Part shown: positions 20,101 through 56,983 of the stretch, piece by piece
Layout of the letters: every line of letters begins with the position of its first letter
Numbering within the stretch: position 1 is the stretch's first letter
Source: a phage
Sequence record: PQ374922.1
Length of the DNA stretch: 64,000 bases
Strand: one strand, 5' to 3'
Position numbers and translations under genes: made by a program
The notes under the pieces: generated by a model
The model's database searches: none
What the model saw: the letters and a program-made list of their open reading frames with translations, nothing else
Told to the model about the DNA's origin: nothing

Positions 20101-20651
20101 TTCGCCAACTCCTGCTCCAGCTGATTGACAAACGAAGACACATAATCTGGGTCGAGTACTTGGATGTTCCGTTTGGCTTCATTCTTACTGATTGCATCAT
20201 CATGGTATGAAACTGCCGTCAGACCATAGTTAGCAATTATGGACGGCTCATCCAGGTCTAGGTTATATGCGAATTTGATAGCACGGGCGTCGGTCACATT
20301 GTTGAACTGGTCGACATAATAGGCTGTATCCCACATACCATCGATGCCGTAATCTGCAGTCAGTTCTTCAACAATACGGCGTTCCGGTTTCGGCCAGTCC
20401 TTATTGATGTCCATGATGCCGTTTATCAGACAAGGTATCCAAAACAACTCGAAGGATCCGTAAACGCGTTCTGCGAAAGACCTTGGGGTTTCCCCATCTT
20501 GGATCGTATACGGCAGGAGAAGCCCTTCGATGTCCTTAATTTTCTGTAAGATCATCACCCGGCGCGTTAAATTCTGTAACAGCACCTGATCATTCTCTTG
20601 GACATCTTGCAATTGATGCCAAACAAGTGGAAACTTCTCAAAATATTTCAT
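20097..20651 (-). CDS. Baseplate-associated protein (possibly gp28-like, 184 aa)
   Basis: Size and position in the hub operon; 4-nt overlap with the downstream gene. Confidence 0.35.
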   Translation of the reverse strand: MKYFEKFPLVWHQLQDVQENDQVLLQNLTRRVMILQKIKDIEGLLLPYTIQDGETPRSFAERVYGSFELFWIPCLINGIMDINKDWPKPERRIVEELTADYGIDGMWDTAYYVDQFNNVTDARAIKFAYNLDLDEPSIIANYGLTAVSYHDDAISKNEAKRNIQVLDPDYVSSFVNQLEQELAK

Positions 20652-21681: not shown

Positions 21682-22296
21682 ATGAGCAACTATCTTCAGG
21701 GGAAGTACACCCCAGTTAATCCCAAGAAATATCAGGGGAATGTGAACAACATCATCTTCCGCTCTTCGCTGGAGTTGGTGGCTTTCAAGTTCTGTGATAT
21801 GAACTCCGCGATAGTGAAGTGGTCTAGTGAGGAGACCGTAATCCCTTACATTTCCCCAGTAGACGGGCGCACCCATCGTTACTTCATGGACCTCAAGGTC
21901 TGGACGCGCCGTGAAGGGCAAGAGGAACTACAGGTCACCCTCATTGAGATCAAGCCCAAAGACCAGATCAAGCAGCCGAAGAAGACTCCGAACATGAAGG
22001 AGTCGACATTCAACAATGCGATGCGAACCTGGTTGGTCAATTCTGCCAAGTGGCAGGCCACCCGCGAACTGTGTGCCAAGAAGAACTGGAAGTTCATTAT
22101 ATGGACCGAAGAGCATCTTGTTCCGGGTGAAGATCCGGATGTTCGTAAACAGTTTGAGCTGAAGTCGAAAAAGAAACGGGATATGGAGATGCAAGACCGT
22201 CGCCATGCTGAGCGTGTCAGATTCTTGAAAGAACAGATGATGAAGGAAGTAAGACCCGCCCCAACGGAGCGGGATGATGGACTGCTCTTACCTTAA
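21682..22296 (+). CDS. Hypothetical late protein (204 aa), possibly baseplate-hub assembly (gp26/gp51-like) or head-completion-like
   Basis: Divergent from the hub operon; size close to gp26. Assignment is inference. Confidence 0.4.
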   Translation: MSNYLQGKYTPVNPKKYQGNVNNIIFRSSLELVAFKFCDMNSAIVKWSSEETVIPYISPVDGRTHRYFMDLKVWTRREGQEELQVTLIEIKPKDQIKQPKKTPNMKESTFNNAMRTWLVNSAKWQATRELCAKKNWKFIIWTEEHLVPGEDPDVRKQFELKSKKKRDMEMQDRRHAERVRFLKEQMMKEVRPAPTERDDGLLLP

Positions 22297-22505
22297 CTTC
22301 TCTTGTGGCCAGGGGCGTAACAGGTATGTCTGTCGCGCCCAATTTGCCAGCCGTCTGCTCGCGCCTGTTTGACACACTCACCCCAAGTCTCACCAGTGTA
22401 TTGTTTGAACCCGCACTTGGGGTGATGCTCTTCCCAAGCCCAACTGCATGCCTTGCAATCTGAGCATTCACAATAAAGATCGATGGTGTAACCTGAAATG
22501 ATCAT
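22293..22505 (-). CDS. Small Cys-rich (zinc-binding?) protein, 70 aa
   Basis: CECSDCKACSWAW...HPKC...C...H pattern. Confidence 0.4.
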   Translation of the reverse strand: MIISGYTIDLYCECSDCKACSWAWEEHHPKCGFKQYTGETWGECVKQARADGWQIGRDRHTCYAPGHKRS

Positions 22506-22507
22506 GA

Positions 22508-22915
22508 TCAGTCTTCTAGGTGATCGTAGATCTTCTGACGGAACGCATTACCACCAGCACAACCCTTGGCCAGCAGGTGGGTGCCGCCCGTACCGATCAC
22601 GCTGATTGTTGAGAAGCCCAAGATGCGGCCTGTGATGGACTGATCAACCTTCACTGTCTCCACCTTACCAATGCGCAACTCATCAGCATCACGACGGATG
22701 AACCCGCGCTTGACGATGACGCGCTTGTTAGTCACAGCGAATTCAGTTGTCAATACATTTAAAATTGTTGGTATCAGAAATAACAAGCTGAATCCAAATG
22801 TTGGGATAAACGTTAAAATAACCAGAACGTAAATCCAAAAACCGCTCCACCAAGTCGGGCGGGTGAAGGCAATAACGTGCTCGTCTTTGCCGAGCATACG
22901 ATCTACATAACGCAT
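22508..22915 (-). CDS. Membrane protein with bacterial PH-like (bPH_2/YdbT-like) domain
   Basis: Two TM helices (WWSGFWIYVLVILTFIPTFGFSLLFLIPTIL) followed by a small beta-rich domain, as in bPH_2 proteins. Confidence 0.45.
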   Translation of the reverse strand: MRYVDRMLGKDEHVIAFTRPTWWSGFWIYVLVILTFIPTFGFSLLFLIPTILNVLTTEFAVTNKRVIVKRGFIRRDADELRIGKVETVKVDQSITGRILGFSTISVIGTGGTHLLAKGCAGGNAFRQKIYDHLED

Positions 22916-22925
22916 GATAAATTCC

Positions 22926-23435
22926 TTATTTGTCAGGGTTCACTAAAACAGGGGTGGATACCAGTTCGCCGTTCTTCACAGAATGCTGGACTACAACAAA
23001 CTGATCGACCATGCGATATACTTCAATTCCAGCAGCCAGCATGTCAATAATACCGTCTATGATACGATATGGTCGGTCATAGAACACTTTAGCGATCTTG
23101 CCACTGCCGATAATACGACGGGTGCACTCTGGGCATGGACTATGAGTGACAAACATCACTAGGCCACAACAGTCTTCAGTGTGCTGGGGGAGTTTGCTCA
23201 GAGCATTCTCCTCGGCGTGGATAACACCCACCGATACCAGTTGACCGTCTACTTCCTTCTCACAGACATTAGGAGCGCCAGGAGCAGTCCCGTTCCAACC
23301 GATAGACAGGGGCTGGTCAACACGCGGGTCAACGATAACACAGCCGACCTTCAGGCGCTGGGCATAGCTGGACAGAGCGTATGCATGAGCCGAGCGCATA
23401 TGCGCAAATAACATACGGGGTTTGATAGCCATCAC
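22926..23435 (-). CDS. cd: dCMP deaminase
   Basis: Zinc-dependent deaminase motifs HAEENAL and PCPECTRRI. Confidence 0.85.
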   Translation of the reverse strand: MMAIKPRMLFAHMRSAHAYALSSYAQRLKVGCVIVDPRVDQPLSIGWNGTAPGAPNVCEKEVDGQLVSVGVIHAEENALSKLPQHTEDCCGLVMFVTHSPCPECTRRIIGSGKIAKVFYDRPYRIIDGIIDMLAAGIEVYRMVDQFVVVQHSVKNGELVSTPVLVNPDK

Positions 23436-23746
23436 ATCACCAGTTTCTTTTCAAGGAGGAAGATCATGTCGTCTTGGTCTGCACGACCAAAGATCTGACC
23501 CATGGCGACCATCTGGTGGACTTCCCTTACAATGATTTCTTTGCCAGGAGTAACTTCATCCAGGTCCATGATAGTGCTGACGCGGTCTACCATGCGCGGC
23601 GGGTGATTAATGTAGCGCTGCAGGTACTTCTCGCGAGTGGCGATCAAAGTGTTCAGCTCGGACAGCTCTGTCTCTTCTTCTGAGAAGCGCTTTTCCTTCG
23701 CCTGTAGTTCAGCCAGACGCTCATACATTTCTTTTAATGGGGTCAT
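23432..23746 (-). CDS. Hypothetical coiled-coil protein (104 aa)
   Basis: ATGA overlap with cd; predicted helical. Confidence 0.5.
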   Translation of the reverse strand: MTPLKEMYERLAELQAKEKRFSEEETELSELNTLIATREKYLQRYINHPPRMVDRVSTIMDLDEVTPGKEIIVREVHQMVAMGQIFGRADQDDMIFLLEKKLVM

Positions 23747-23815
23747 TTCCGGTTCCTCTTAATAAACGAAGGGAAGTATATACTCCCCCTTCTTCAATAA
23801 CCGCTGAATCTTTAT

Positions 23816-24205
23816 TCAGAGATAAGATTTACCGAGTTCGGTCAGGCGATAGAACGTCATCTCAGTGTTCGGCCAGTTCACGTAAGAACCGTCATGAACC
23901 ATTGAGCCAGCTGGTTCGATCAACCCCTTGGCGAGAAGGGAAGCCCCTGTGCGGGTGTCCCATGGGTCGCCTTTGACGGAGGTGAAACCACCAGCGTTCA
24001 GGCATACCTGGAACGTCCAGACGGTGTTGCCCTTGTCATTGGTCCAGGATTTGGGATGCAAGTACCATTCACCATAACGGTAATGACCTTTCTCAAAGTT
24101 CTCTATCCCGTAGAGAACCGAGAGTTGGTGTCCTGTAATACGCGGCTTTTTCATGACAATACTCCTTTCAGAGCTAAAACGGAAAGCACACCAATAATCA
24201 ACCAT
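23816..24205 (-). CDS. Hypothetical protein (129 aa; start probably internal at MKKPRITG)
   Basis: ORF with alternative internal ATG. Confidence 0.45.
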   Translation of the reverse strand: MVDYWCAFRFSSERSIVMKKPRITGHQLSVLYGIENFEKGHYRYGEWYLHPKSWTNDKGNTVWTFQVCLNAGGFTSVKGDPWDTRTGASLLAKGLIEPAGSMVHDGSYVNWPNTEMTFYRLTELGKSYL

Positions 24206-24468
24206 GTCGGGATAATCGGCTTGCAGTTCATGTGGGTTTCTCCACCTTCGATGTTCGGGCTTCCTTGTATAAGAACGTGTTCACAGGAAGCTCTGAACGT
24301 CATTACACAGCCCATCAACACAATCGGCCTGATATAATAACCCGTTTTAGTTTGCTTCACGATACATGGAGAGGAGAAGCGCAGATATGGATCCCCTTTC
24401 CGGTAGCCTGTGATTGTGACCTTCTGCACTTCATAAGGCACTTTTTGGCCAGAAAAATAAATTTTCAT
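24151..24468 (-). CDS. Hypothetical tail-anchored membrane protein (105 aa)
   Basis: C-terminal TM segment [16 protein letters not shown]. Confidence 0.45.
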
Positions 24469-25043
24469 ATTTCAATCCCCAGATTGGTGTAGAGCAGCTC
24501 GGCCAATGTCACAGGGCGCTTGAATTGTTCCCAGCTGCAGTTCAGGTATTCACGTTCTTCACGCATTTTACTGTGAAGATGACCATGGATATTATACGCC
24601 CAGCGGTCCAATTGATAAGGAACGTGAGTGGTCAGCACACGACCAACCGGAGTATCACGCTCATACATCGCACCAAAGGAGCTAATCCATCCCTCTTGAT
24701 ACAGCTTCATCAACATCTTGAATCTGTCATGGTTGCCTTGCGCCACCCTGATGATAAAGTTCGGTCGCCAGTCATCGGGAACCGGGCGGCGCTTGAACTC
24801 ATCAATATTCCGCTTGGCACCCTCGCGCATCAGGCGAATGAACCCCTCAGCCCCGATGAAGCAGATGTCGCCTGCAAGTTCAAGGACGTCTCGAGACTTC
24901 AGCCCCTGAAAGATACTGTCGATAACTGCAGCATCATGCGCCTCTTGGGTATCGAACCCACGGGGCTTGAAGATCTTCTTGTGTCCAAGGTGGGTGTCTC
25001 CCAGATACTTTACAATTCCTGCCATTATGGTCTCCTCAACCAT
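24465..25043 (-). CDS. Calcineurin-like metallophosphoesterase
   Basis: Metallophosphatase motifs GDTHLG, GNHD, HGHLH. Confidence 0.7.
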
Positions 25044-25453
25044 TCTAAAATCGGTACGTTCACAAACCCTTTATGCCAGCGATGTGGTTTGTGACCTCTG
25101 TTGTGTTCGAGCAAACACGTGTCCGGTGGGACACTGAAGTGGATGCCGTCGATGTCGTAGTAATGCCCATCAATCAGAGTATACACATGACCTTCGGTCT
25201 GACTGTAATGGATCTCTGCTTGGGGATACACGTGCTTCAACAACAGAGCGACCTGGTAACACTTCCCGTTCTTCCCCACGTACTCGACATCCACCTGTTG
25301 TGGAAACACATCTTTGACAAGGTTTATCAATCTCGTGATGTCATTTACAACAACCGAACGTTTCATATCGCCTCTCCCGAGGATTCGTTGGTGAACCAAT
25401 GATACTCTATCCCGGATATAGAAAAGCCCCTCACGGGGCTTGATCATCTTCAT
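25025..25453 (-). CDS. Hypothetical protein (142 aa)
   Basis: ORF in operon context. Confidence 0.45.
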
Positions 25454-25733
25454 CAGGGAATATACGCCATCGACCTATTCCATACCACTCACCGATAGAG
25501 TTCCATGTCCTTTCCCCAGGCCAGCCACCGACCGTGTAGTAATGCGCCACCAGCCGCCAGTAAGGAAGAGAGGCCGTGTTCACGCCGCCGTCGGCCTTTA
25601 GGCAGGCCAAGTACCAATTCGTGAGACTGAACGCCTGAAATAACGGATGAAGGAACATGAAGTACAGGTAGCCCAATATGGCTGCGAACACCCCAGCTGT
25701 TACGATCACACCGATGACAGTGAATACAATCAT
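25431..25733 (-). CDS. Hypothetical membrane protein (100 aa)
   Basis: N-terminal TM segment IVFTVIGVIVTAGVFAAILGYLYFMF. Confidence 0.4.
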   Translation of the reverse strand: MIVFTVIGVIVTAGVFAAILGYLYFMFLHPLFQAFSLTNWYLACLKADGGVNTASLPYWRLVAHYYTVGGWPGERTWNSIGEWYGIGRWRIFPDEDDQAP

Positions 25734-26362
25734 CCCACAACCTCCAGCCCCATCAGATCTTCCATGGTCTTCTGAATACGCAGCCAGTCAAGCGCAGCGT
25801 CATAACGAGGGTCGTGATAGACCATACCTTCCAGTTCCCACGCCTTGATGCCAGCATACCGATCCTGCTGTCCAACACCCTTCAGCCAACTCACGATGTC
25901 GAAGGTGTGGTGGTAGTCCCAAGGCTCGTTGGAGTCCTGCTTACACGTCACCTCAATGATGTGCTGAGCCTTGCGCAGATCGAACAAGTTACGGTCACAC
26001 CAGTCAACCGAGCGCGGGTCTACCCCAAGAAGATGACAACCCTTGCGGATTTCATCGGCCAGCTGGAAGATAGAGATGTCATCTTCCTTGGGATACAGAC
26101 TGACGGCGCGAGCCGCATCACACGGGTTACGTTTACCCGTGCCCAGCCACCATTCTACCGTCCCCTGGTCCTTCACGCGACCGAGTTCGATCTGTTCTTT
26201 GACATTCAGCTTAATGAACGTCGTGCGCTCCTCAACCAGCTGCTGAAGAGTATAACGCTTGGTCAGGTCGGCGATGGTGTGTGCCCAAGACAGCATGACT
26301 GCATCATCCCAGCGCCCCAGGGTTTCGCTGTCGGCAACTGCAAGGAAATTAGACTTGTACAT
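25730..26362 (-). CDS. DEDD-type 3'-5' exonuclease (DexA-like)
   Basis: Exo I-like motif FLAVADSETLG near the N-terminus; size similar to T4 DexA. Confidence 0.55.
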   Translation of the reverse strand: MYKSNFLAVADSETLGRWDDAVMLSWAHTIADLTKRYTLQQLVEERTTFIKLNVKEQIELGRVKDQGTVEWWLGTGKRNPCDAARAVSLYPKEDDISIFQLADEIRKGCHLLGVDPRSVDWCDRNLFDLRKAQHIIEVTCKQDSNEPWDYHHTFDIVSWLKGVGQQDRYAGIKAWELEGMVYHDPRYDAALDWLRIQKTMEDLMGLEVVG

Positions 26363-26977
26363 TTATGCCTCCTCGTCGATGATTTCTTGCTCATCTTCGA
26401 CAATCATGATACTTTCTGTGTCCAGATGAGAAAGTTCCATCAGATCATCATCGAACCCGTCTCCTTCCCTGATATAGAAGACTGGGACGACACGACGGCG
26501 GGTCTCTTCATACACGCTTTCAGAGATTCGATTGATATGGCGCACTACACTGTAGAGGTTCAGACCACCAATGCCACAGCCGATAGCAGGCAGGCCGACA
26601 TAGACGGTTTCATCTTTAGTTGCTTCCACAATTTCGTGAACCTGCTCAAACAACATCTGAACAGAACTGATGACAGACGGCATGCGAGCGTTCGGACCTG
26701 GATAAAACTGAGTGTAGAGGTTCGCGCCCCAGACACCAGTGCTGTGGTCAAATGCATAGGACATGCCACCCAGGCGTTGCTCTGGACCACGAGGGTCGTT
26801 CGCATCGACTTCACGCAGGGCTGGGAAGTTGTTACCGATGTGCAGAGCAATGCCCGCACCCATGGTAGACCAACAGTTGGCACCGTGGGCAAAGATGTCG
26901 ATCAGATTGAAGCTACAGGCGGCTTTCAGTAGATCACCACCATTGATTACATAAGTTGTCATGCGTACTGTCTCCAT
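26363..26977 (-). CDS. Macro-domain-like protein (ADP-ribose binding/processing) with acidic C-terminal tail
   Basis: IDIFAHGANCWSTMGAGIA resembles the macrodomain N-x(6)-GGG-like signature. Assignment is tentative. Confidence 0.45.
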   Translation of the reverse strand: METVRMTTYVINGGDLLKAACSFNLIDIFAHGANCWSTMGAGIALHIGNNFPALREVDANDPRGPEQRLGGMSYAFDHSTGVWGANLYTQFYPGPNARMPSVISSVQMLFEQVHEIVEATKDETVYVGLPAIGCGIGGLNLYSVVRHINRISESVYEETRRRVVPVFYIREGDGFDDDLMELSHLDTESIMIVEDEQEIIDEEA

Positions 26978-27201
26978 TCAATAATGCTGTTGTCAACACA
27001 TGACACCTGGATGATGCCTGTGCGGTGGTGATAATCAGTCATCTGCATGATAAAGTTGTTCCCATTGTTGATAATGGTGTTGACAACGATACCCTTGGCA
27101 GCAAGGCGTATTACAATGGCAGTGCAAAGGCGGTCCATGTAACCGGACACAGAACCTGGTTCGAAGCATCGCTCGAACAGATTTTCAAATTCTGGGCTCA
27201 T
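26959..27201 (-). CDS. Hypothetical protein (80 aa)
   Basis: ORF with overlapping start. Confidence 0.35.
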   Translation of the reverse strand: MSPEFENLFERCFEPGSVSGYMDRLCTAIVIRLAAKGIVVNTIINNGNNFIMQMTDYHHRTGIIQVSCVDNSIIEWRQYA

Positions 27202-27251
27202 TTGATGTTACCAAACAAGGGGTCGAGGCGGTAATAATACCGCCTTTTTCT

Positions 27252-27662
27252 TCAATAGAGGTCTTCGGAAAAGAGTTCGCGGAAAGGGGTTGTCTTCAGG
27301 CGCACCTGATTGATCTGTCCAGCTTCACGGGCTACGATGCATGCCTCTTCACGAGTGAGGAAGTTGCCCTGGTTGTCGATGAATCCCTGTTCGCGGGTAT
27401 GGATGGATTTAATGACGCCTGCTTCTTTCAGGATCTTGAGCTGGCTGTTCATGAATTTGCTATGGTGACGGTCGGCAACGACGATCACGTCACCATATTT
27501 GTTGGCGGCAGCGACCACACGGCGCTCCCAGGCACCTTCGACAGGAAGTTCACGAGTGTACAATGGAATCATCGTATCGCCGATGTCATCCCCTTTCACC
27601 TGTGAGAACAACTTGCCTTCAGTGCCCGTTGGGAGTTCACGAAAATATCCCAGTAATTTCAT
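27252..27662 (-). CDS. Hypothetical protein (136 aa)
   Basis: ORF; no motif recognised. Confidence 0.5.
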   Translation of the reverse strand: MKLLGYFRELPTGTEGKLFSQVKGDDIGDTMIPLYTRELPVEGAWERRVVAAANKYGDVIVVADRHHSKFMNSQLKILKEAGVIKSIHTREQGFIDNQGNFLTREEACIVAREAGQINQVRLKTTPFRELFSEDLY

Positions 27663-31599: not shown

Positions 31600-32181
31600 T
31601 TATAGACCAAATTTGCTACGCCACTTTTCAACCTTGTGTTCAATAGCGTGCTCCACTTTAATGCGAGTGGCCATCAAAGAGGATCCACGGATCGCCCCTT
31701 CCCCACACCCCATGCGCGCAACATGCTTGATTAGGTCATTGACGAGTTGATCCAATCTGTCTTGACTGCGATAAGGCTGGTTGCACAATCGGATAATCCG
31801 GCCATGATAATGATGGATAAGATTCAGATGCTTTTGAGGATCACGATCAATCAGACGGAACCAGTCTTCTTCCAACAGATTAGAAGAAATATCGTTCACT
31901 GTCGCCATGTGGTTGATGACAGAGTCGATCATTTCGACCTTGTTCAGAGAGCCGCGCATTTGGACGTCGTCATAATCCATGACGTACAGAAGGTCAATAG
32001 CAGAGATAATGACATCAGCAACTTCGCCATTCAACGGCTCGGAAGATACTATGCCATGAAACACATCAGACAGTTCACAGATCTCTTCACCTAGTTTGTT
32101 CAGAACAAACACAGGCGAACGGTCTGGGGTATGAGCAGTGCAGTCATAAGAAGTGTCGACGATAGTGTGTAGAAATTTCAT
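31600..32181 (-). CDS. MazG-like all-alpha NTP pyrophosphohydrolase
   Basis: LNKLGEEICELSD ... GEVADVIISAIDLLYVMDYD fits the MazG EE-x-x-EL / E-x-ADV pattern. Confidence 0.5.
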   Translation of the reverse strand: MKFLHTIVDTSYDCTAHTPDRSPVFVLNKLGEEICELSDVFHGIVSSEPLNGEVADVIISAIDLLYVMDYDDVQMRGSLNKVEMIDSVINHMATVNDISSNLLEEDWFRLIDRDPQKHLNLIHHYHGRIIRLCNQPYRSQDRLDQLVNDLIKHVARMGCGEGAIRGSSLMATRIKVEHAIEHKVEKWRSKFGL

Positions 32182-32681
32182 TTCAAAGTTCCTTGTATGC
32201 GGAGACGATTAATGTGGGCAATGATATAGTCCATAGAGTTTTGAAAACTGTATTTCCCGTTCTGAACATATGCATGGATCAGGGGTAGGCGACTGTACGC
32301 CAATCTGATCTTCAGACGTTCAGGCATTGTCTGGAGTTTCATACTAGTTGCAAATAGGATATCGCGCTTGAATTCTTCGGTAGACGGGTCCAGGACAATG
32401 ACGCGGGAAGCCGCCAATCCCTGTCCATATTGCTTGGCCTCATAACCGTCGAGCAGGCGCAGGTTGTCATCCCTATACTTCAGCCAATACCAGTACCCCT
32501 CCATGGAGTTAAACACACCATGTTCATGGGTAGTCATTGGATGATGGGTAAAATGCGAGAGGAAGCGCCCGAGTTCCGTCTGGCTCCGGCTGTAGATGTT
32601 GAAGTGATTCTTACCCTCTGTTGCAGGGGTCATCTTGTTCTGTGGAACGCTCATTAACAGCATCATGATGTAGTTTCTCAA
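32178..32681 (-). CDS. Hypothetical protein (167 aa)
   Basis: ATGA overlap with the MazG-like gene. Confidence 0.5.
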   Translation of the reverse strand: MRNYIMMLLMSVPQNKMTPATEGKNHFNIYSRSQTELGRFLSHFTHHPMTTHEHGVFNSMEGYWYWLKYRDDNLRLLDGYEAKQYGQGLAASRVIVLDPSTEEFKRDILFATSMKLQTMPERLKIRLAYSRLPLIHAYVQNGKYSFQNSMDYIIAHINRLRIQGTLK

Positions 32682-32953: not shown

Positions 32954-33499
32954 CTAGCCCAGAAACACTACTAAAGTCAAATTAGTGAGGGCGCTGCGGC
33001 CTTCCCGCAGCATTTCATGCGCAGATGCAAGGCGCTTGGGGTCATGCAATGTATCAGAGAACACGATGATGTTTGCTTTATCGATGCCCGTGCCCATGTA
33101 ATGGGAGATGGTTGTCGTGTGCTGTTTCTTGTCTACATCGGGCAATGATACATCCGCGCCTGCTCGGGAGCGGAAGAAAGAATCGCGTTCACTAACGCTA
33201 TGGAAGACTCCCATGATGTTGAGGTTGTTCTCTGTCTGGAAATCATAGGACAGAATCTTCTTCAGCGCGGCGGTGTGCCCAGTCTGGCGCAGCATGCGAT
33301 AGTACAGTATGTTTCCAGGACAGGTGGGGTCCGTCACACCTCCCCTCGATTGGCGATCTTTCTGGATTTCATACGCATCCAGGATAAGTTGTTGGACCAT
33401 TTCAATATGGGCAGTCAGGGAGATTTCGACTTTACGTTTGACCATGGATTTCATTTGGTGTATCCTCAGATAGGTTCCGCTCATGGGGAACGGTTCCAT
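32954..33499 (-). CDS. Hypothetical protein (181 aa)
   Basis: ORF; start probably internal (MKSMVKRK). Confidence 0.5.
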   Translation of the reverse strand: MEPFPMSGTYLRIHQMKSMVKRKVEISLTAHIEMVQQLILDAYEIQKDRQSRGGVTDPTCPGNILYYRMLRQTGHTAALKKILSYDFQTENNLNIMGVFHSVSERDSFFRSRAGADVSLPDVDKKQHTTTISHYMGTGIDKANIIVFSDTLHDPKRLASAHEMLREGRSALTNLTLVVFLG

Positions 33500-56564: not shown

Positions 56565-56653
56565 TGGCGGAAGGTGAAGGATTCGAACCTTCGGGGGCTA
56601 AAAGCCCCACTCGATTAGCAGTCGAGTCCCTTAAACCTCTCGGGCAACCTTCC
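56565..56653 (-). tRNA. tRNA-Ser (anticodon GCU)
   Basis: Cloverleaf folded by eye: acceptor GGAAGGT/ACCTTCC, D-arm CCC/GGG, anticodon stem CTCGA/TCGAG with loop CTGCTAA, long variable arm GGGGCTTTTAGCCCC, T-arm GAAGG-TTCGAAT-CCTTC, encoded CCA. Confidence 0.85.
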
Positions 56654-56906: not shown

Positions 56907-56983
56907 TGGTGATCCTGATTGGGTTTGAACCAATGACCAATGAATTATGAGTTCACTGCTCTAACCGACTGAGCTACAGGACC
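56907..56983 (-). tRNA. tRNA-Met (anticodon CAU; elongator Met or Ile-lysidine type)
   Basis: Cloverleaf: acceptor GGTCCTG/CAGGATC, D-arm GCTC-AGTCGGTTA-GAGC, anticodon loop CTCATAA, T-arm ATTGG-TTCAAAC-CCAAT, encoded CCA. Confidence 0.85.

Follow-up and report, generated by a model that had tools for sequence, protein, structure and literature searches.

The segment at positions 22293-27662 of the window (the whole 64,000-nucleotide stretch of phage DNA analysed, record PQ374922.1) is probably a conserved piece of genomic backbone that does not form a single system. Its macrodomain protein would reverse the mark left by DarT2, and a gene resembling AdfN lies upstream of it. The window comes from an Agtrevirus-like phage of the Ackermannviridae, with ~98% identity to Escherichia phages A221, YX22 and ZQ1.

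Organization and conservation of the block

The block consists of 13 open reading frames (ORFs), all on the minus strand and filling exactly these coordinates, with junctions of -23 to +69 nt between ORFs (Table 1). Each of the 13 matches a PHROG family (E 1e-24 to 1e-75). The genes listed in the original prediction are real and lie where it had placed them, and Pfam, PHROG, motif and profile checks have shown that the recognisable ones were named correctly. By sequence, the content comprises a dCMP deaminase (Cd), a DexA exonuclease, a metallophosphoesterase, a macrodomain protein of the Tk.4/AdfM family and nine further proteins, including two of membrane type (the bPH protein and a predicted one).

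Table 1. Features of the block and the AdfN-like gene outside it, with positions in the window.
Feature	Position	Strand	Matches and remarks
Cys-rich 70-aa protein	22293..22505	-	phrog_926, E 5.6e-26
bPH_2 ('membrane-flanked' bacterial PH) membrane protein	22508..22915	-	PF03703, E 1.9e-12; phrog_3707, E 9e-75
dCMP deaminase, T4 Cd-like	22926..23432	-	PF00383, E 9.4e-16; phrog_174, E 5e-53
104-aa protein	23432..23746	-	phrog_4059, E 2.7e-53; syntenic in Marshall and T765
112-aa protein	23816..24154	-	phrog_4677, E 1.5e-53, alignment begins at residue 18
DUF7618 protein	24151..24468	-	PF24594, E 1.6e-48
Calcineurin-like metallophosphoesterase, aq_1665 subfamily	24465..25025	-	phrog_547, E 1.5e-44
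Phage YunG-like protein	25025..25366	-	PF24591, E 6.6e-43; phrog_4814 alignment begins at residue 30
GC-rich hairpin followed by T run	25424..25441	-	overlaps stop codon of the 100-aa membrane-protein gene
100-aa protein, hydrophobic N-terminal segment	25431..25733	-	phrog_2531, E 1.2e-24
DexA-type DEDDh 3'-5' exonuclease	25730..26362	-	phrog_255, E 1.7e-52
Macrodomain protein, T4 Tk.4/AdfM family	26363..26977	-	phrog_335, E 2.5e-62
DUF7234 protein	26959..27201	-	PF23881, E 2e-40
Palindromic GC-rich hairpin	27225..27246		in the 50-nt gap from the Arn.3-like gene to the DUF7234 gene
T4 Arn.3-like protein	27252..27662	-	PF26092 family
T4 gp30.3/AdfN homologue (outside the block)	32178..32681	-	phrog_652, E 2.4e-53

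The description of this region as an accessory gene island does not hold. Its GC content is flat (0.50, the same as in the remainder of the window), and the block occupies the same site in three Ackermannviridae lineages, with topoisomerase II on one side and the gp4 head-completion gene on the other. All 13 genes are present and syntenic in Kuttervirus Marshall, as are 11 of the 13 in Taipeivirus T765. The block is therefore a conserved segment of the Ackermannviridae backbone, and not a mobile or accessory island. The macrodomain, phosphoesterase and Arn.3-like genes are each found at full length in ~270 or more records, numbers close to the ~278 records that match the block region by DNA. 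The gene content resembles that of the early, non-essential gene regions of T4, the early timing of the block being an assumption based on this content; a promoter scan gave nothing exceeding chance.

The hairpin at the end of the 100-aa protein gene is probably a terminator or an RNA-stability element that splits the block, and a terminator is annotated at the equivalent place in the Marshall record. Since hairpin counts in the block region are not above chance, this terminator call follows from position alone. The intergenic hairpins are consistent with the existence of several transcription units in the block.

Small proteins of the block

The Cys-rich protein holds a CxCxxC motif plus further Cys and His residues. 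Its gene, the last of the block, shares 4 nt at its 3' end with gp4, which is convergent to it. The protein is 93%, 65% and 50% identical to its counterparts in ChubbyThor, Marshall and T765, respectively, in whose records the gene is unannotated, and the gene is under purifying selection (pN 0.03 against pS 0.39; pN 0.20 against pS 0.75). The start of the 112-aa protein is most likely Met18 of a 129-aa ORF (relatives annotate 339 nt), and that of the YunG-like protein is likely Met30 of its ORF. The 100-aa protein, which shows 38-45% identity in relatives, has a membrane anchor predicted by eye. The DUF7618 gene was not found in Taipeivirus T765.

In the Arn.3-like protein, RH, EQGF, R and Q motifs are invariant and a C-terminal LFSEDLY is conserved. 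It shares these motifs with Arn.3 of T4-like phages, to which its C-terminal 90 residues are ~40% identical, although the Ackermannviridae version adds to T4 Arn.3 an N-terminal beta-rich region of ~45 residues. The Arn.3 family (PF26092) has no functionally characterised member.

Enzymes of nucleotide and nucleic-acid metabolism

The dCMP deaminase exhibits the HAE (H73-A-E75) and PCxxC (P100-C-x-x-C104) motifs. In the family of this phage, ~40% of T is 5-NeOmdU (PMC11721090). Cd feeds the dUMP pool, which matters in a phage family that swaps part of its thymidine for a base derived from 5-hmdU.

The exonuclease matches T4 DexA both by BLASTP (5e-10, 25% identity) and against its structure 8kel (E 1.8e-4). 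Residues D11, E13, D128, H183 and D188 correspond to D7, E9, D119, H186 and D191 of T4 DexA, and the two proteins share the fold, the DEDDh catalytic residues and the PHROG family. On these matches, the protein can be assigned as the T4 DexA orthologue. Two residues of T4 DexA, W152 and D169, recognise 5hmC, whereas the modification reported for the family of the window phage is derived from thymidine. A role for this enzyme in degrading immune signals, as originally proposed, is not borne out, given that T4 DexA serves in host-DNA scavenging and in intron homing (PMC12153337).

The metallophosphoesterase, whose start is likely Met7 of the ORF, conserves D16, H18, D59, N104, H105, H140, H155 and H157 invariantly among 31 distant relatives, 18 of which match PF00149. 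Every metal ligand is kept, and this member of an uncharacterised subfamily is predicted to be catalytically intact. The family profile finds PDB 1xm7 (aq_1665 from Aquifex aeolicus) at 9e-26, and 1xm7 is also the best Foldseek match of an AlphaFold2 model with a pLDDT of 77. Both proteins have all five phosphoesterase motifs and a similar size, but those of the Ackermannviridae show an insertion of ~14 residues (82-95). As aq_1665 has no known substrate, the structural match assigns no function to the phage enzyme. The next-best solved relatives are SbcD/Mre11 nucleases (1e-6 in the profile search), the GpdQ phosphodiesterase and ApaH, and a weak NCBIfam match was obtained to the ligase-associated endonuclease PdeM. 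The degradation of cyclic or linear immune nucleotides that had been suggested for this enzyme finds no backing in these relatives, nor in PADLOC, where it has no match.

A tentative proposal, which we regard as possible, is that the phosphoesterase acts on the nucleotide pool or on nucleic acids instead of on immune signals. One possibility is a phosphohydrolase of dNMP/dTMP or dNTP which, with Cd, shifts the pool towards 5-hmdU precursors; another is a phosphodiesterase that, together with DexA, attacks DNA ends or degrades DNA of the host. The presence of Cd and DexA in this block, the solved relatives ranking after aq_1665, the weak PdeM match, and the substitution of a modified base for thymidine in the Ackermannviridae all point in this direction. 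Homologues are also encoded, however, by T5-like phages, which to our knowledge carry no thymidine modification. Moreover, no specific sequence link connects the enzyme to a characterised nucleotidase or nuclease, and the study of thymidine hypermodification mentions no phosphatase (PMC5889632). More favourable to the proposal is a metallophosphoesterase from a mycobacteriophage that is expressed early and damages host DNA (PMC12287305).

The macrodomain protein

The macrodomain spans residues ~10-150 and is followed by an acidic C-terminal tail of ~45 residues. The protein matches T4 Tk.4 by BLASTP (E 2e-15, 33% identity over 115 residues), and its family profile matches, as best solved relatives, the structures of DarG (3e-17), human TARG1 (7e-14) and Streptomyces SCO6735 (4.5e-13), of the ALC1/TARG1-like class, as well as PhiKZ AdfM by hhalign (probability 97.9%, E 3.5e-13). 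The protein itself matches DarG models in PADLOC (4.9e-7) and in NCBIfam (4.5e-8; 32.7 bits, far under the cut-off of 250 bits), and gives no match to Pfam Macro at E<0.01. These comparisons identify it as a genuine macrodomain, belonging to the TARG1/DarG-like class.

Like T4 Tk.4, it is a stand-alone phage protein without a toxin partner, with the signature H-G-x-N-C...M-G-[AS]-G plus L-Y-T-Q-x-x-P-G-P-[ND], in which both have a Gln where DarG has its Lys. It differs from Tk.4 in length (204 aa against 155 aa), in the strongly acidic tail of ~45 residues ending in EIIDEEA, which is conserved across the Ackermannviridae, and in its neighbour, which is DexA here and vs and tk in T4. Unlike DarG, it lacks a C-terminal DarT-binding domain and an adjacent darT gene, and is encoded by a phage. 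With PhiKZ gp104 (AdfM, a chimallivirus DarG2-like antitoxin) it shares the conserved Asn and the proposed activity, biochemically shown for the PhiKZ protein, but the latter retains the DarG-type P-T-K lysine. PhiKZ AdfM also enters the phage nucleus by import, whereas we know of no evidence for a phage nucleus in the Ackermannviridae.

Among homologues, N34, Q90 and the glycine-rich loops are invariant or nearly so. Asn34 aligns with the Asn of PhiKZ AdfM whose mutation lowers activity (PMC13309987). Gln90 falls in the column of DarG K80, and thus an invariant Gln replaces the catalytic Lys of DarG and TARG1. This replacement is not damaging to the original prediction, since SCO6735 has the same Gln-for-Lys active site, hydrolyses thymidine-ADP-ribose in DNA and protects from DarT, with Gln85 essential for this hydrolysis (PMC9411070); the equivalence of Gln90 and Gln85 is transitive through DarG K80 and presumes that a tag shifts the PDB chains by 10 residues. 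Removal of thymidine-linked ADP-ribose from DNA has been demonstrated for DarG, TARG1 and SCO6735 (PMC12879935).

The function proposed for this protein, ADP-ribose removal against immunity based on ADP-ribosylation, has fared well: reversal of DarT2 ADP-ribosylation, as a DNA ADP-ribosyl glycohydrolase, is probably its role and the best-supported reading, given its homology to Tk.4 and the sensitivity to DarTG2 of a T4 tk.4 knockout, a genetic result reported in a preprint (bioRxiv 10.1101/2025.11.20.689424). Host DarT2 would ADP-ribosylate thymidine in single-stranded phage DNA, blocking replication; the macrodomain would bind the ADP-ribose and cut the thymidine-ribose bond by means of a water molecule, positioned by Gln90 as in SCO6735, in contrast to the Lys-based mechanism of DarG and TARG1. 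No phage ADP-ribosyltransferases of the ModA/ModB type were detected in the Ackermannviridae, which favours a host-directed role. The hypermodification of ~40% of Ackermannviridae thymidine may bear on susceptibility to DarT2. A literature search for a connection between Ackermannviridae and DarTG found none.

It seems unlikely that, instead of DarT2-modified DNA, the macrodomain acts on other ADP-ribose species, such as modified protein or RNA, ADP-ribose-1''-phosphate or O-acetyl-ADP-ribose, or in NAD housekeeping or salvage during infection. Annotations of T4 Tk.4 long read 'A1pp phosphatase', and the family profile also matches yeast Poa1p, an ADP-ribose-1''-phosphate phosphatase (E 9e-11), but DarG macrodomains are the closest solved relatives by score. 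In Pakpunavirus MAG1 a macro homologue is encoded two genes downstream of NAMPT, and a ribose-phosphate pyrophosphokinase is encoded further upstream (genes for NAD reconstitution), yet homologues of NAMPT and of the pyrophosphokinase were not found within the window. SCO6735 and TARG1 do act on proteins as well (PMC9411070); against this, tk.4 was the single significant hit in a T4 screen on a DarTG2 host (bioRxiv 10.1101/2025.11.20.689424).

Block genes probably do not form one system

Although tightly packed on one strand, the genes of the block probably do not make up one system, contrary to the anti-defence cluster first envisaged. A concerted action of the macrodomain, phosphoesterase and exonuclease against host immune molecules, such as ADP-ribose adducts, cyclic nucleotide signals or signalling oligonucleotides, is highly improbable: the packing, a credible counter-defence macrodomain, the intact phosphoesterase site and the macrodomain stop codon that directly abuts the DexA start codon in Agtrevirus speak for it, whereas the T4 counterparts cd, dexA, tk.4 and arn.3 are scattered over that genome, extra gene(s) separate the macrodomain and DexA genes in Kuttervirus and Taipeivirus, hairpins in gaps and the annotated Marshall terminator divide the block into sub-blocks, the phosphoesterase is nearest to an uncharacterised protein and to nucleases, DexA has documented non-defence roles, and Cd, a plain nucleotide-metabolism enzyme, follows four genes later. 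In addition, the phage enzymes known to degrade such signals, Acb1 (a 2H phosphoesterase) and Apyc1 (a metallo-beta-lactamase), have folds other than that of the phosphoesterase.

An AdfN-like gene upstream of the block

A homologue of T4 gp30.3/AdfN is encoded ~5 kb upstream of the block, on the same strand and immediately upstream of the topoisomerase II genes. T4 gp30.3 matches the same PHROG family (E 9.2e-51), and the two families align over nearly their full length by hhalign (probability 95.8%, E 7.9e-9, 136 columns), with the motif LSxF...P...F.S.EG in common. The protein is nevertheless too diverged from gp30.3 for BLAST, and neither the Pfam NADAR model nor NCBIfam picked it up; in its Moabite homologue, an annotator noted an HHpred match to YbiA. 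T4 gp30.3/AdfN is a NADAR-type guanine ADP-ribosyl glycohydrolase and an anti-DarTG1 factor (PMC11825919), and a protein of this family would remove the guanine-linked ADP-ribose put on by DarT1. With this homologue in addition to the macrodomain of the block, the window phage probably resembles T4 in having both anti-DarT arms.

Gene content and conservation of the block

Over its full length, the block of 13 minus-strand genes shows 96-98% identity to ten deposited phage genomes by DNA comparison, including those of the Escherichia phages A221, YX22, vB_EcoM-ZQ1, LHE287, and AV101, and 88-91% identity to the Agtrevirus phages Ag3, SKML-39, MK-13, and ChubbyThor. The first 25 kb of the window match 278 records, nearly all of them from Ackermannviridae-type phages of Salmonella, Klebsiella, Escherichia, and Dickeya. 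By these matches, the window belongs to an Ackermannviridae genome of Agtrevirus-like type, well represented in GenBank. The block itself can be found, with partial annotation, in dozens of earlier records.

Features of the block and of the regions discussed with it (window positions)
Feature	Position	Strand	Remarks
gp4 head-completion gene	21682-22296	+	convergent with the block
Hairpin	22255-22273		GC-rich, intergenic
Gene block	22293-27662	-	13 ORFs
Cys-rich protein gene	22293-22505	-	70 aa, phrog_926
Hairpin	23769-23790		GC-rich, intergenic
Phosphoesterase gene	24465-25025	-	calcineurin-like
Phosphoesterase insertion	24760-24801	-	residues 82-95
Variable slot	25367-25430
Hairpin	25424-25441		GC-rich, intergenic
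Antisense ORF	25814-26932	+	372 aa
Macrodomain protein gene	26363-26977	-	204 aa, adjoins the DexA gene
Acidic tail of the macrodomain protein	26363-26500	-	residues ~155-204
Hairpin	27225-27246		GC-rich, intergenic
Arn.3-like gene	27252-27662	-	PF26092
MazG-like pyrophosphatase gene	31600-32181	-	phrog_1247, E 4e-35; between the AdfN-like gene and topoisomerase II
AdfN-like gene	32178-32681	-	167 aa; phrog_652, E 2.4e-53; 'hypothetical' in relatives
Histone-family DNA-binding protein gene	32954-33499	-	phrog_4164; just upstream of the AdfN-like gene
tRNA-Ser(GCT)	56565-56653	-	far from the block
tRNA-Met(CAT)	56907-56983	-	far from the block

The outer ends of the 13 ORFs coincide exactly with the limits of the block, neighbouring ORFs overlap by up to 23 nt or are separated by up to 69 nt, and every one of them matches a PHROG family (E 1e-24 to 1e-75). 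The gene content and coordinates of the original prediction were therefore right, and its labels (Cys-rich protein, bPH membrane protein, dCMP deaminase, metallophosphoesterase, DEDD exonuclease, and macro protein) are upheld by motifs and profiles. Plus-strand ORFs, including the one listed in the table, run antisense to conserved genes and were taken as non-coding. Later start codons are suggested by the annotation of relatives and by PHROG alignments for four ORFs, namely those of the dCMP deaminase Cd (23432), phrog_4677 (24154), the phosphoesterase (25025), and the YunG-like protein (25366).

The description of this region as an accessory island has to be abandoned. GC content is 0.50 throughout the block and its flanks, and the genes lying between topoisomerase II and gp4 follow the same order in the phages Marshall (Kuttervirus, subfamily Cvivirinae) and T765 (Taipeivirus), with all 13 genes syntenic in the former and 11 in the latter, which lacks the DUF7618 and YunG-like genes. 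Pfam and PHROG matches reveal no integrase, transposase, or homing endonuclease among the genes of the block. Full-length tblastn matches were obtained in 272 records for the macrodomain protein, 269 for the Arn.3-like protein, and 717 for the phosphoesterase, the latter including many phages from outside the Ackermannviridae, such as T5-like phages. None of the marks of an island (patchy presence, atypical composition, mobility genes) is therefore seen.

Variation among relatives is confined to single slots. In ChubbyThor and Marshall, the membrane-protein and YunG-like genes are separated by two additional genes, a further small gene lies between the Arn.3-like gene and DUF7234, and in Marshall and T765 one more gene separates the macrodomain gene from that of DexA. 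The first slot (L002 6099-7015 and L005 9028-9986 in the compared loci) is where the terminator-like hairpin sits, and of its two genes, both missing from the window lineage, one has ~680 nt and is called an alpha-hydrolase ('alpha hydrophase') in the ChubbyThor record, the other being a small ORF. In the A221 record (L004), two CDS stand in place of the single phosphoesterase gene (22173-22733), and bPH and Arn.3-like (20216-20443 and 24960-25307) are shortened, all three genes being intact in the window; these are either frameshifts or sequencing errors in the record, or real pseudogenes. The convergent gp4 protein gives a match to the TnsA-like endonuclease N-terminal domain (PF08722, E 1.9e-17). 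The block was also considered as a synteny equivalent of T4 rIIA-60-39-dexA, and this was rejected because, even though the genes lie near each other in both phages, the transcript order differs.

A scan for sigma-70 promoters and terminators found promoter and hairpin counts not above those of shuffled sequence, for which reason the existence of several transcription units is something that we infer; their boundaries were placed only from the hairpin positions and from one terminator, annotated in the Marshall record at the equivalent of the hairpin 25424-25441. The hairpins at 25424-25441 and 23769-23790 are the predicted terminators. Across the window, Rfam and ARAGORN detected nothing beyond the two tRNA genes.

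Nucleotide-metabolism and small proteins

Pfam returned no match for the DexA protein of the window. This 210-aa exonuclease matches the crystal structure of T4 DexA, and its residues D11, E13, D128, H183, and D188 are in register with T4 D7, E9, D119, H186, and D191, which make up the DEDDh set. It is thus an exonuclease of the T4 DexA type, and its proposed role as a degrader of immune molecules is unsupported. The deaminase Cd holds the motifs H73-A-E75 and P100-C-P-E-C104 and scores 58 bits against PF00383 (cut-off 25). In this phage family, ~40% of the thymidine is 5-NeOmdU, made from 5-hmdU (PMC11721090), and a dUMP-supplying Cd consequently fits ordinary nucleotide metabolism.

The Cys-rich gene is unannotated in LHE287, A221, ChubbyThor, Marshall, and T765, yet it is conserved there at 50-93% identity, with a pN of 0.03 versus a pS of 0.39 against ChubbyThor. 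This conservation under purifying selection indicates that it is a gene missed in those records. Searches of Pfam, PHROG, NCBIfam, and PADLOC yielded nothing further for DUF7618, YunG-like, DUF7234, phrog_4059, phrog_4677, phrog_2531, bPH, and the Cys-rich protein, and the only PADLOC match in the block is the DarG match of the macrodomain protein.

The macrodomain protein as a member of the AdfM family

Pfam does not recognize the macrodomain protein of the window on its own (no match at E<0.01), and PF01661 is present in many of its database homologues. A profile built from 35 sequences of the family matches 16 solved macrodomain chains at E<1e-4, headed by the DarG macrodomains of M. tuberculosis and T. 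aquaticus (3e-17 and 8e-17) and followed by human TARG1 (7e-14), Streptomyces SCO6735 (4.5e-13), and yeast Poa1p (9e-11). The family profile and the Pfam matches of the homologues thus place the protein in the macrodomain superfamily. It is homologous to phage proteins as well: T4 Tk.4 shows 33% identity (BLASTP, E 2e-15) and shares an L-Y-T-Q...P-G-P motif, a signature of the AdfM family, and the AdfM of PhiKZ (gp104) is homologous with an hhalign probability of 97.9%.

DarG is the only match of the protein in both NCBIfam (E 4.5e-8) and PADLOC (4.9e-7). The protein does not qualify as the DarG antitoxin of a DarTG2 system: it scores 32.7 bits against the DarG equivalog NF048014, whose cut-off is 250, with the macro part alone being matched. 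The C-terminal domain of DarG is absent from it, an acidic tail standing in its place, and no DarT-like transferase appears among the Pfam and PHROG matches of its neighbours in the block. The score, the missing DarT-binding domain, and the lack of an adjacent darT all argue against an antitoxin. The acidic tail (~45 residues) is conserved in Ackermannviridae, while T4 Tk.4 and PhiKZ AdfM lack it; the last 57 residues of the window protein include 18 Asp/Glu and end in EIIDEEA.

In the Pakpunavirus MAG1 (L010 1975-5486), a homologue of the macrodomain protein is encoded two genes downstream of a nicotinamide phosphoribosyltransferase, with a ribose-phosphate pyrophosphokinase further upstream. 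These NAD-reconstitution neighbours hint at a link between the macro family and conflicts over NAD/ADP-ribose. Homologues of these two MAG1 enzymes were searched for in the window and neither was found.

A Gln-type active site

In a transposon screen, tk.4, now named adfM, came out as the only gene that T4 requires on a host with DarTG2, and a clean tk.4 knockout was sensitised to DarTG2 (bioRxiv 10.1101/2025.11.20.689424). T4 is also the one phage from which the need for an AdfM-type gene on DarTG2-carrying hosts is known (bioRxiv 10.1101/2025.11.20.689424). PhiKZ AdfM strips DarT2-added ADP-ribose off DNA in vitro, an activity that is lowered by mutation of a conserved Asn (PMC13309987), and thymidine-linked ADP-ribose on ssDNA is hydrolysed by DarG, TARG1, and SCO6735 alike (PMC12879935).

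In the window protein, N34 is invariant and falls in one alignment column with the Asn of the PhiKZ AdfM motif VNVVGVMG, and the glycine-rich ADP-ribose-binding loops M39-G-A-G-I-A and G133-C-G-I-G-G are nearly invariant. The catalytic Lys of the P-T-K motif (DarG K80, TARG1 K84) is absent; the K80 column is occupied by Gln90 of the L-Y-T-Q motif, which is invariant in the window protein, T4 Tk.4, and 35 of 35 aligned relatives. SCO6735 holds Gln85 at the position equivalent to K80/K84, its Q85A mutation abolishes hydrolysis of thymidine-ADP-ribose DNA, and the protein protects against DarT (PMC9411070). The equivalence of Gln90 and Gln85 is transitive via DarG and assumes a 10-residue tag offset in the PDB chains 5m3i and 5m31; it suggests that the Tk.4 clade has an active site of the SCO6735 type. 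Since Gln85 is essential in SCO6735, the missing Lys is not to be read as a loss of function. The retention of catalytic residues, on which the original prediction had made its enzymatic reading depend, therefore holds for Asn34 and the glycine-rich loops and fails for the Lys, but with Gln90 in place as in SCO6735.

By analogy with these enzymes, the Gln-type macrodomain protein would act as a hydrolase of thymidine-ADP-ribose on DNA, and its sequence marks it as an addition to the AdfM-type family of counter-defence enzymes, described only recently. The proposal that it is an ADP-ribose counter-defence enzyme thus gains support from AdfM family homology and from the T4 tk.4 phenotype. A purely self-regulatory role for the anti-DarT homologues is disfavoured because no ModA/ModB-type phage ADP-ribosyltransferases were detected in Ackermannviridae.

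An AdfN-like gene outside the block

The protein gp30.3 of T4, or AdfN, belongs to the NADAR enzymes; it reverses the ADP-ribosylation of guanine and gives T-even phages protection from DarTG1 (PMC11825919). A remote homologue is encoded in the window upstream of the topoisomerase genes and on the same strand. T4 gp30.3 also matches phrog_652, over the same profile region (9.2e-51), and alignment of the window family (9 sequences) with the gp30.3 family (5 sequences) by hhalign gives a probability of 95.8% (E 7.9e-9, 136 columns). Neither BLASTP nor a thin profile links the window protein to gp30.3, the relationship being significant with enlarged family alignments alone. Pfam NADAR gives no direct match for the AdfN-like protein, and NCBIfam returns nothing for it or for T4 gp30.3 itself. 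A protein of the jumbo Serratia phage Moabite, annotated as YbiA-like, matches window 32232-32633 with 37% identity (E 9e-19). From these alignments, the phage very probably holds homologues of both T4 anti-DarT enzymes, ~5 kb apart.

The Arn.3-like protein

Arn.3-like proteins are present in 1564 phage records. They hold invariant R65-H66, Q92-G93-F94 (EQGF), R104, and Q116 residues and a conserved C-terminal LFSEDLY. The structure model is confident (pLDDT 85.5); it has BFVD matches to domains within 'large polyvalent proteins', and no solved structural relative was found. The gene lies two genes from the macrodomain gene in the window, four genes from a NADAR gene in the Vequintavirinae phage A7_1 (L009 5953-6417), and three genes from the AdfN-like homologue in Moabite (L011 4824-5294). 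Proximity to ADP-ribosyl hydrolase genes in three unrelated phage groups (n=3) constitutes a lead. Vequintavirinae AdfN has been experimentally validated, and T4 AdfN is reported to be less than fully functional when the infection is not by a T-even phage and to depend, perhaps, on a further phage protein (PMC11825919).

One joint reading makes the Arn.3-like protein the missing component of ADP-ribosylation counter-defence, and the acidic tail of the macrodomain protein a DNA mimic that blocks DarT2. The Arn.3-like protein would then be either a new enzyme or an accessory factor on which phage ADP-ribosyl hydrolases depend in vivo, and the tail would block DarT2 directly, paralleling the second domain of DarG. 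As a whole, we consider this reading improbable.

The calcineurin-like phosphoesterase

Pfam gives no match for the window phosphoesterase alone, and PF00149 (Metallophos) is reached by 18 of 31 family members. Residues D16, H18, D59, N104, H105, H140, H155, and H157 are invariant in eleven close and 30 distant homologues, the latter drawn from 1650 cluster representatives (the 31-sequence set reaches down to 26% identity), and the five calcineurin-like motifs (D-x-H, G-D, G-N-H-[DE], H, and G-H-x-H) are all present. With the enlarged profile, the first match is Aquifex aq_1665 (1xm7, 9e-26), followed by SbcD/Mre11, GpdQ, ApaH, and Rv0805 at 1e-6 to 7e-3. An AlphaFold2 model of moderate quality (pLDDT 77) has 1xm7 as its sole significant Foldseek match, and no function is gained from it because that protein is uncharacterised. 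NCBIfam offers only a sub-threshold PdeM match. An insertion of ~14 residues between motifs II and III is typical of Ackermannviridae phosphoesterases and absent from most of the 1650 wider family members.

Hydrolysis of immune signals had been proposed for this protein. Acb1 has a 2H-phosphoesterase fold and Apyc1 a metallo-beta-lactamase fold, from both of which the calcineurin-like fold of the phosphoesterase differs. In T5-like phages, the homologues sit in the early region, a context uninformative on function. A mycobacteriophage metallophosphoesterase with an anti-defence phenotype acts by damaging host DNA (PMC12287305), and a link of the phosphoesterase to thymidine hypermodification was sought in PMC5889632 and not found. 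With all metal ligands invariant, the enzyme is intact, but nothing in the sequence indicates hydrolysis of cyclic-nucleotide or ADP-ribose signals, the closest relative being the uncharacterised aq_1665.

Implications for Ackermannviridae

The view of the block as a cooperating anti-defence cluster is unsupported, its interpretation being right for one gene, that of the macrodomain protein; the block is otherwise an ordinary set of conserved T4-like nucleotide-metabolism genes and small genes of unknown function. What has been added here is the Gln-type active-site assignment, the acidic tail, the AdfN-like gene, and the Arn.3 association.

The Gln-type active site, common to SCO6735 and T4 Tk.4, marks a phage clade. 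If the assignment holds, Ackermannviridae would carry both known enzymatic answers to DarTG, a Tk.4/AdfM macrodomain and a gp30.3/AdfN NADAR protein, and partial thymidine hypermodification alone would not render DarT2 irrelevant. Ackermannviridae phages, which have a broad host range, find use against Salmonella, E. coli O157, Shigella, Klebsiella, and Dickeya; the two enzymes, if acting as proposed, would help to account for, and to predict, the host range of these phages among strains that carry DarTG.
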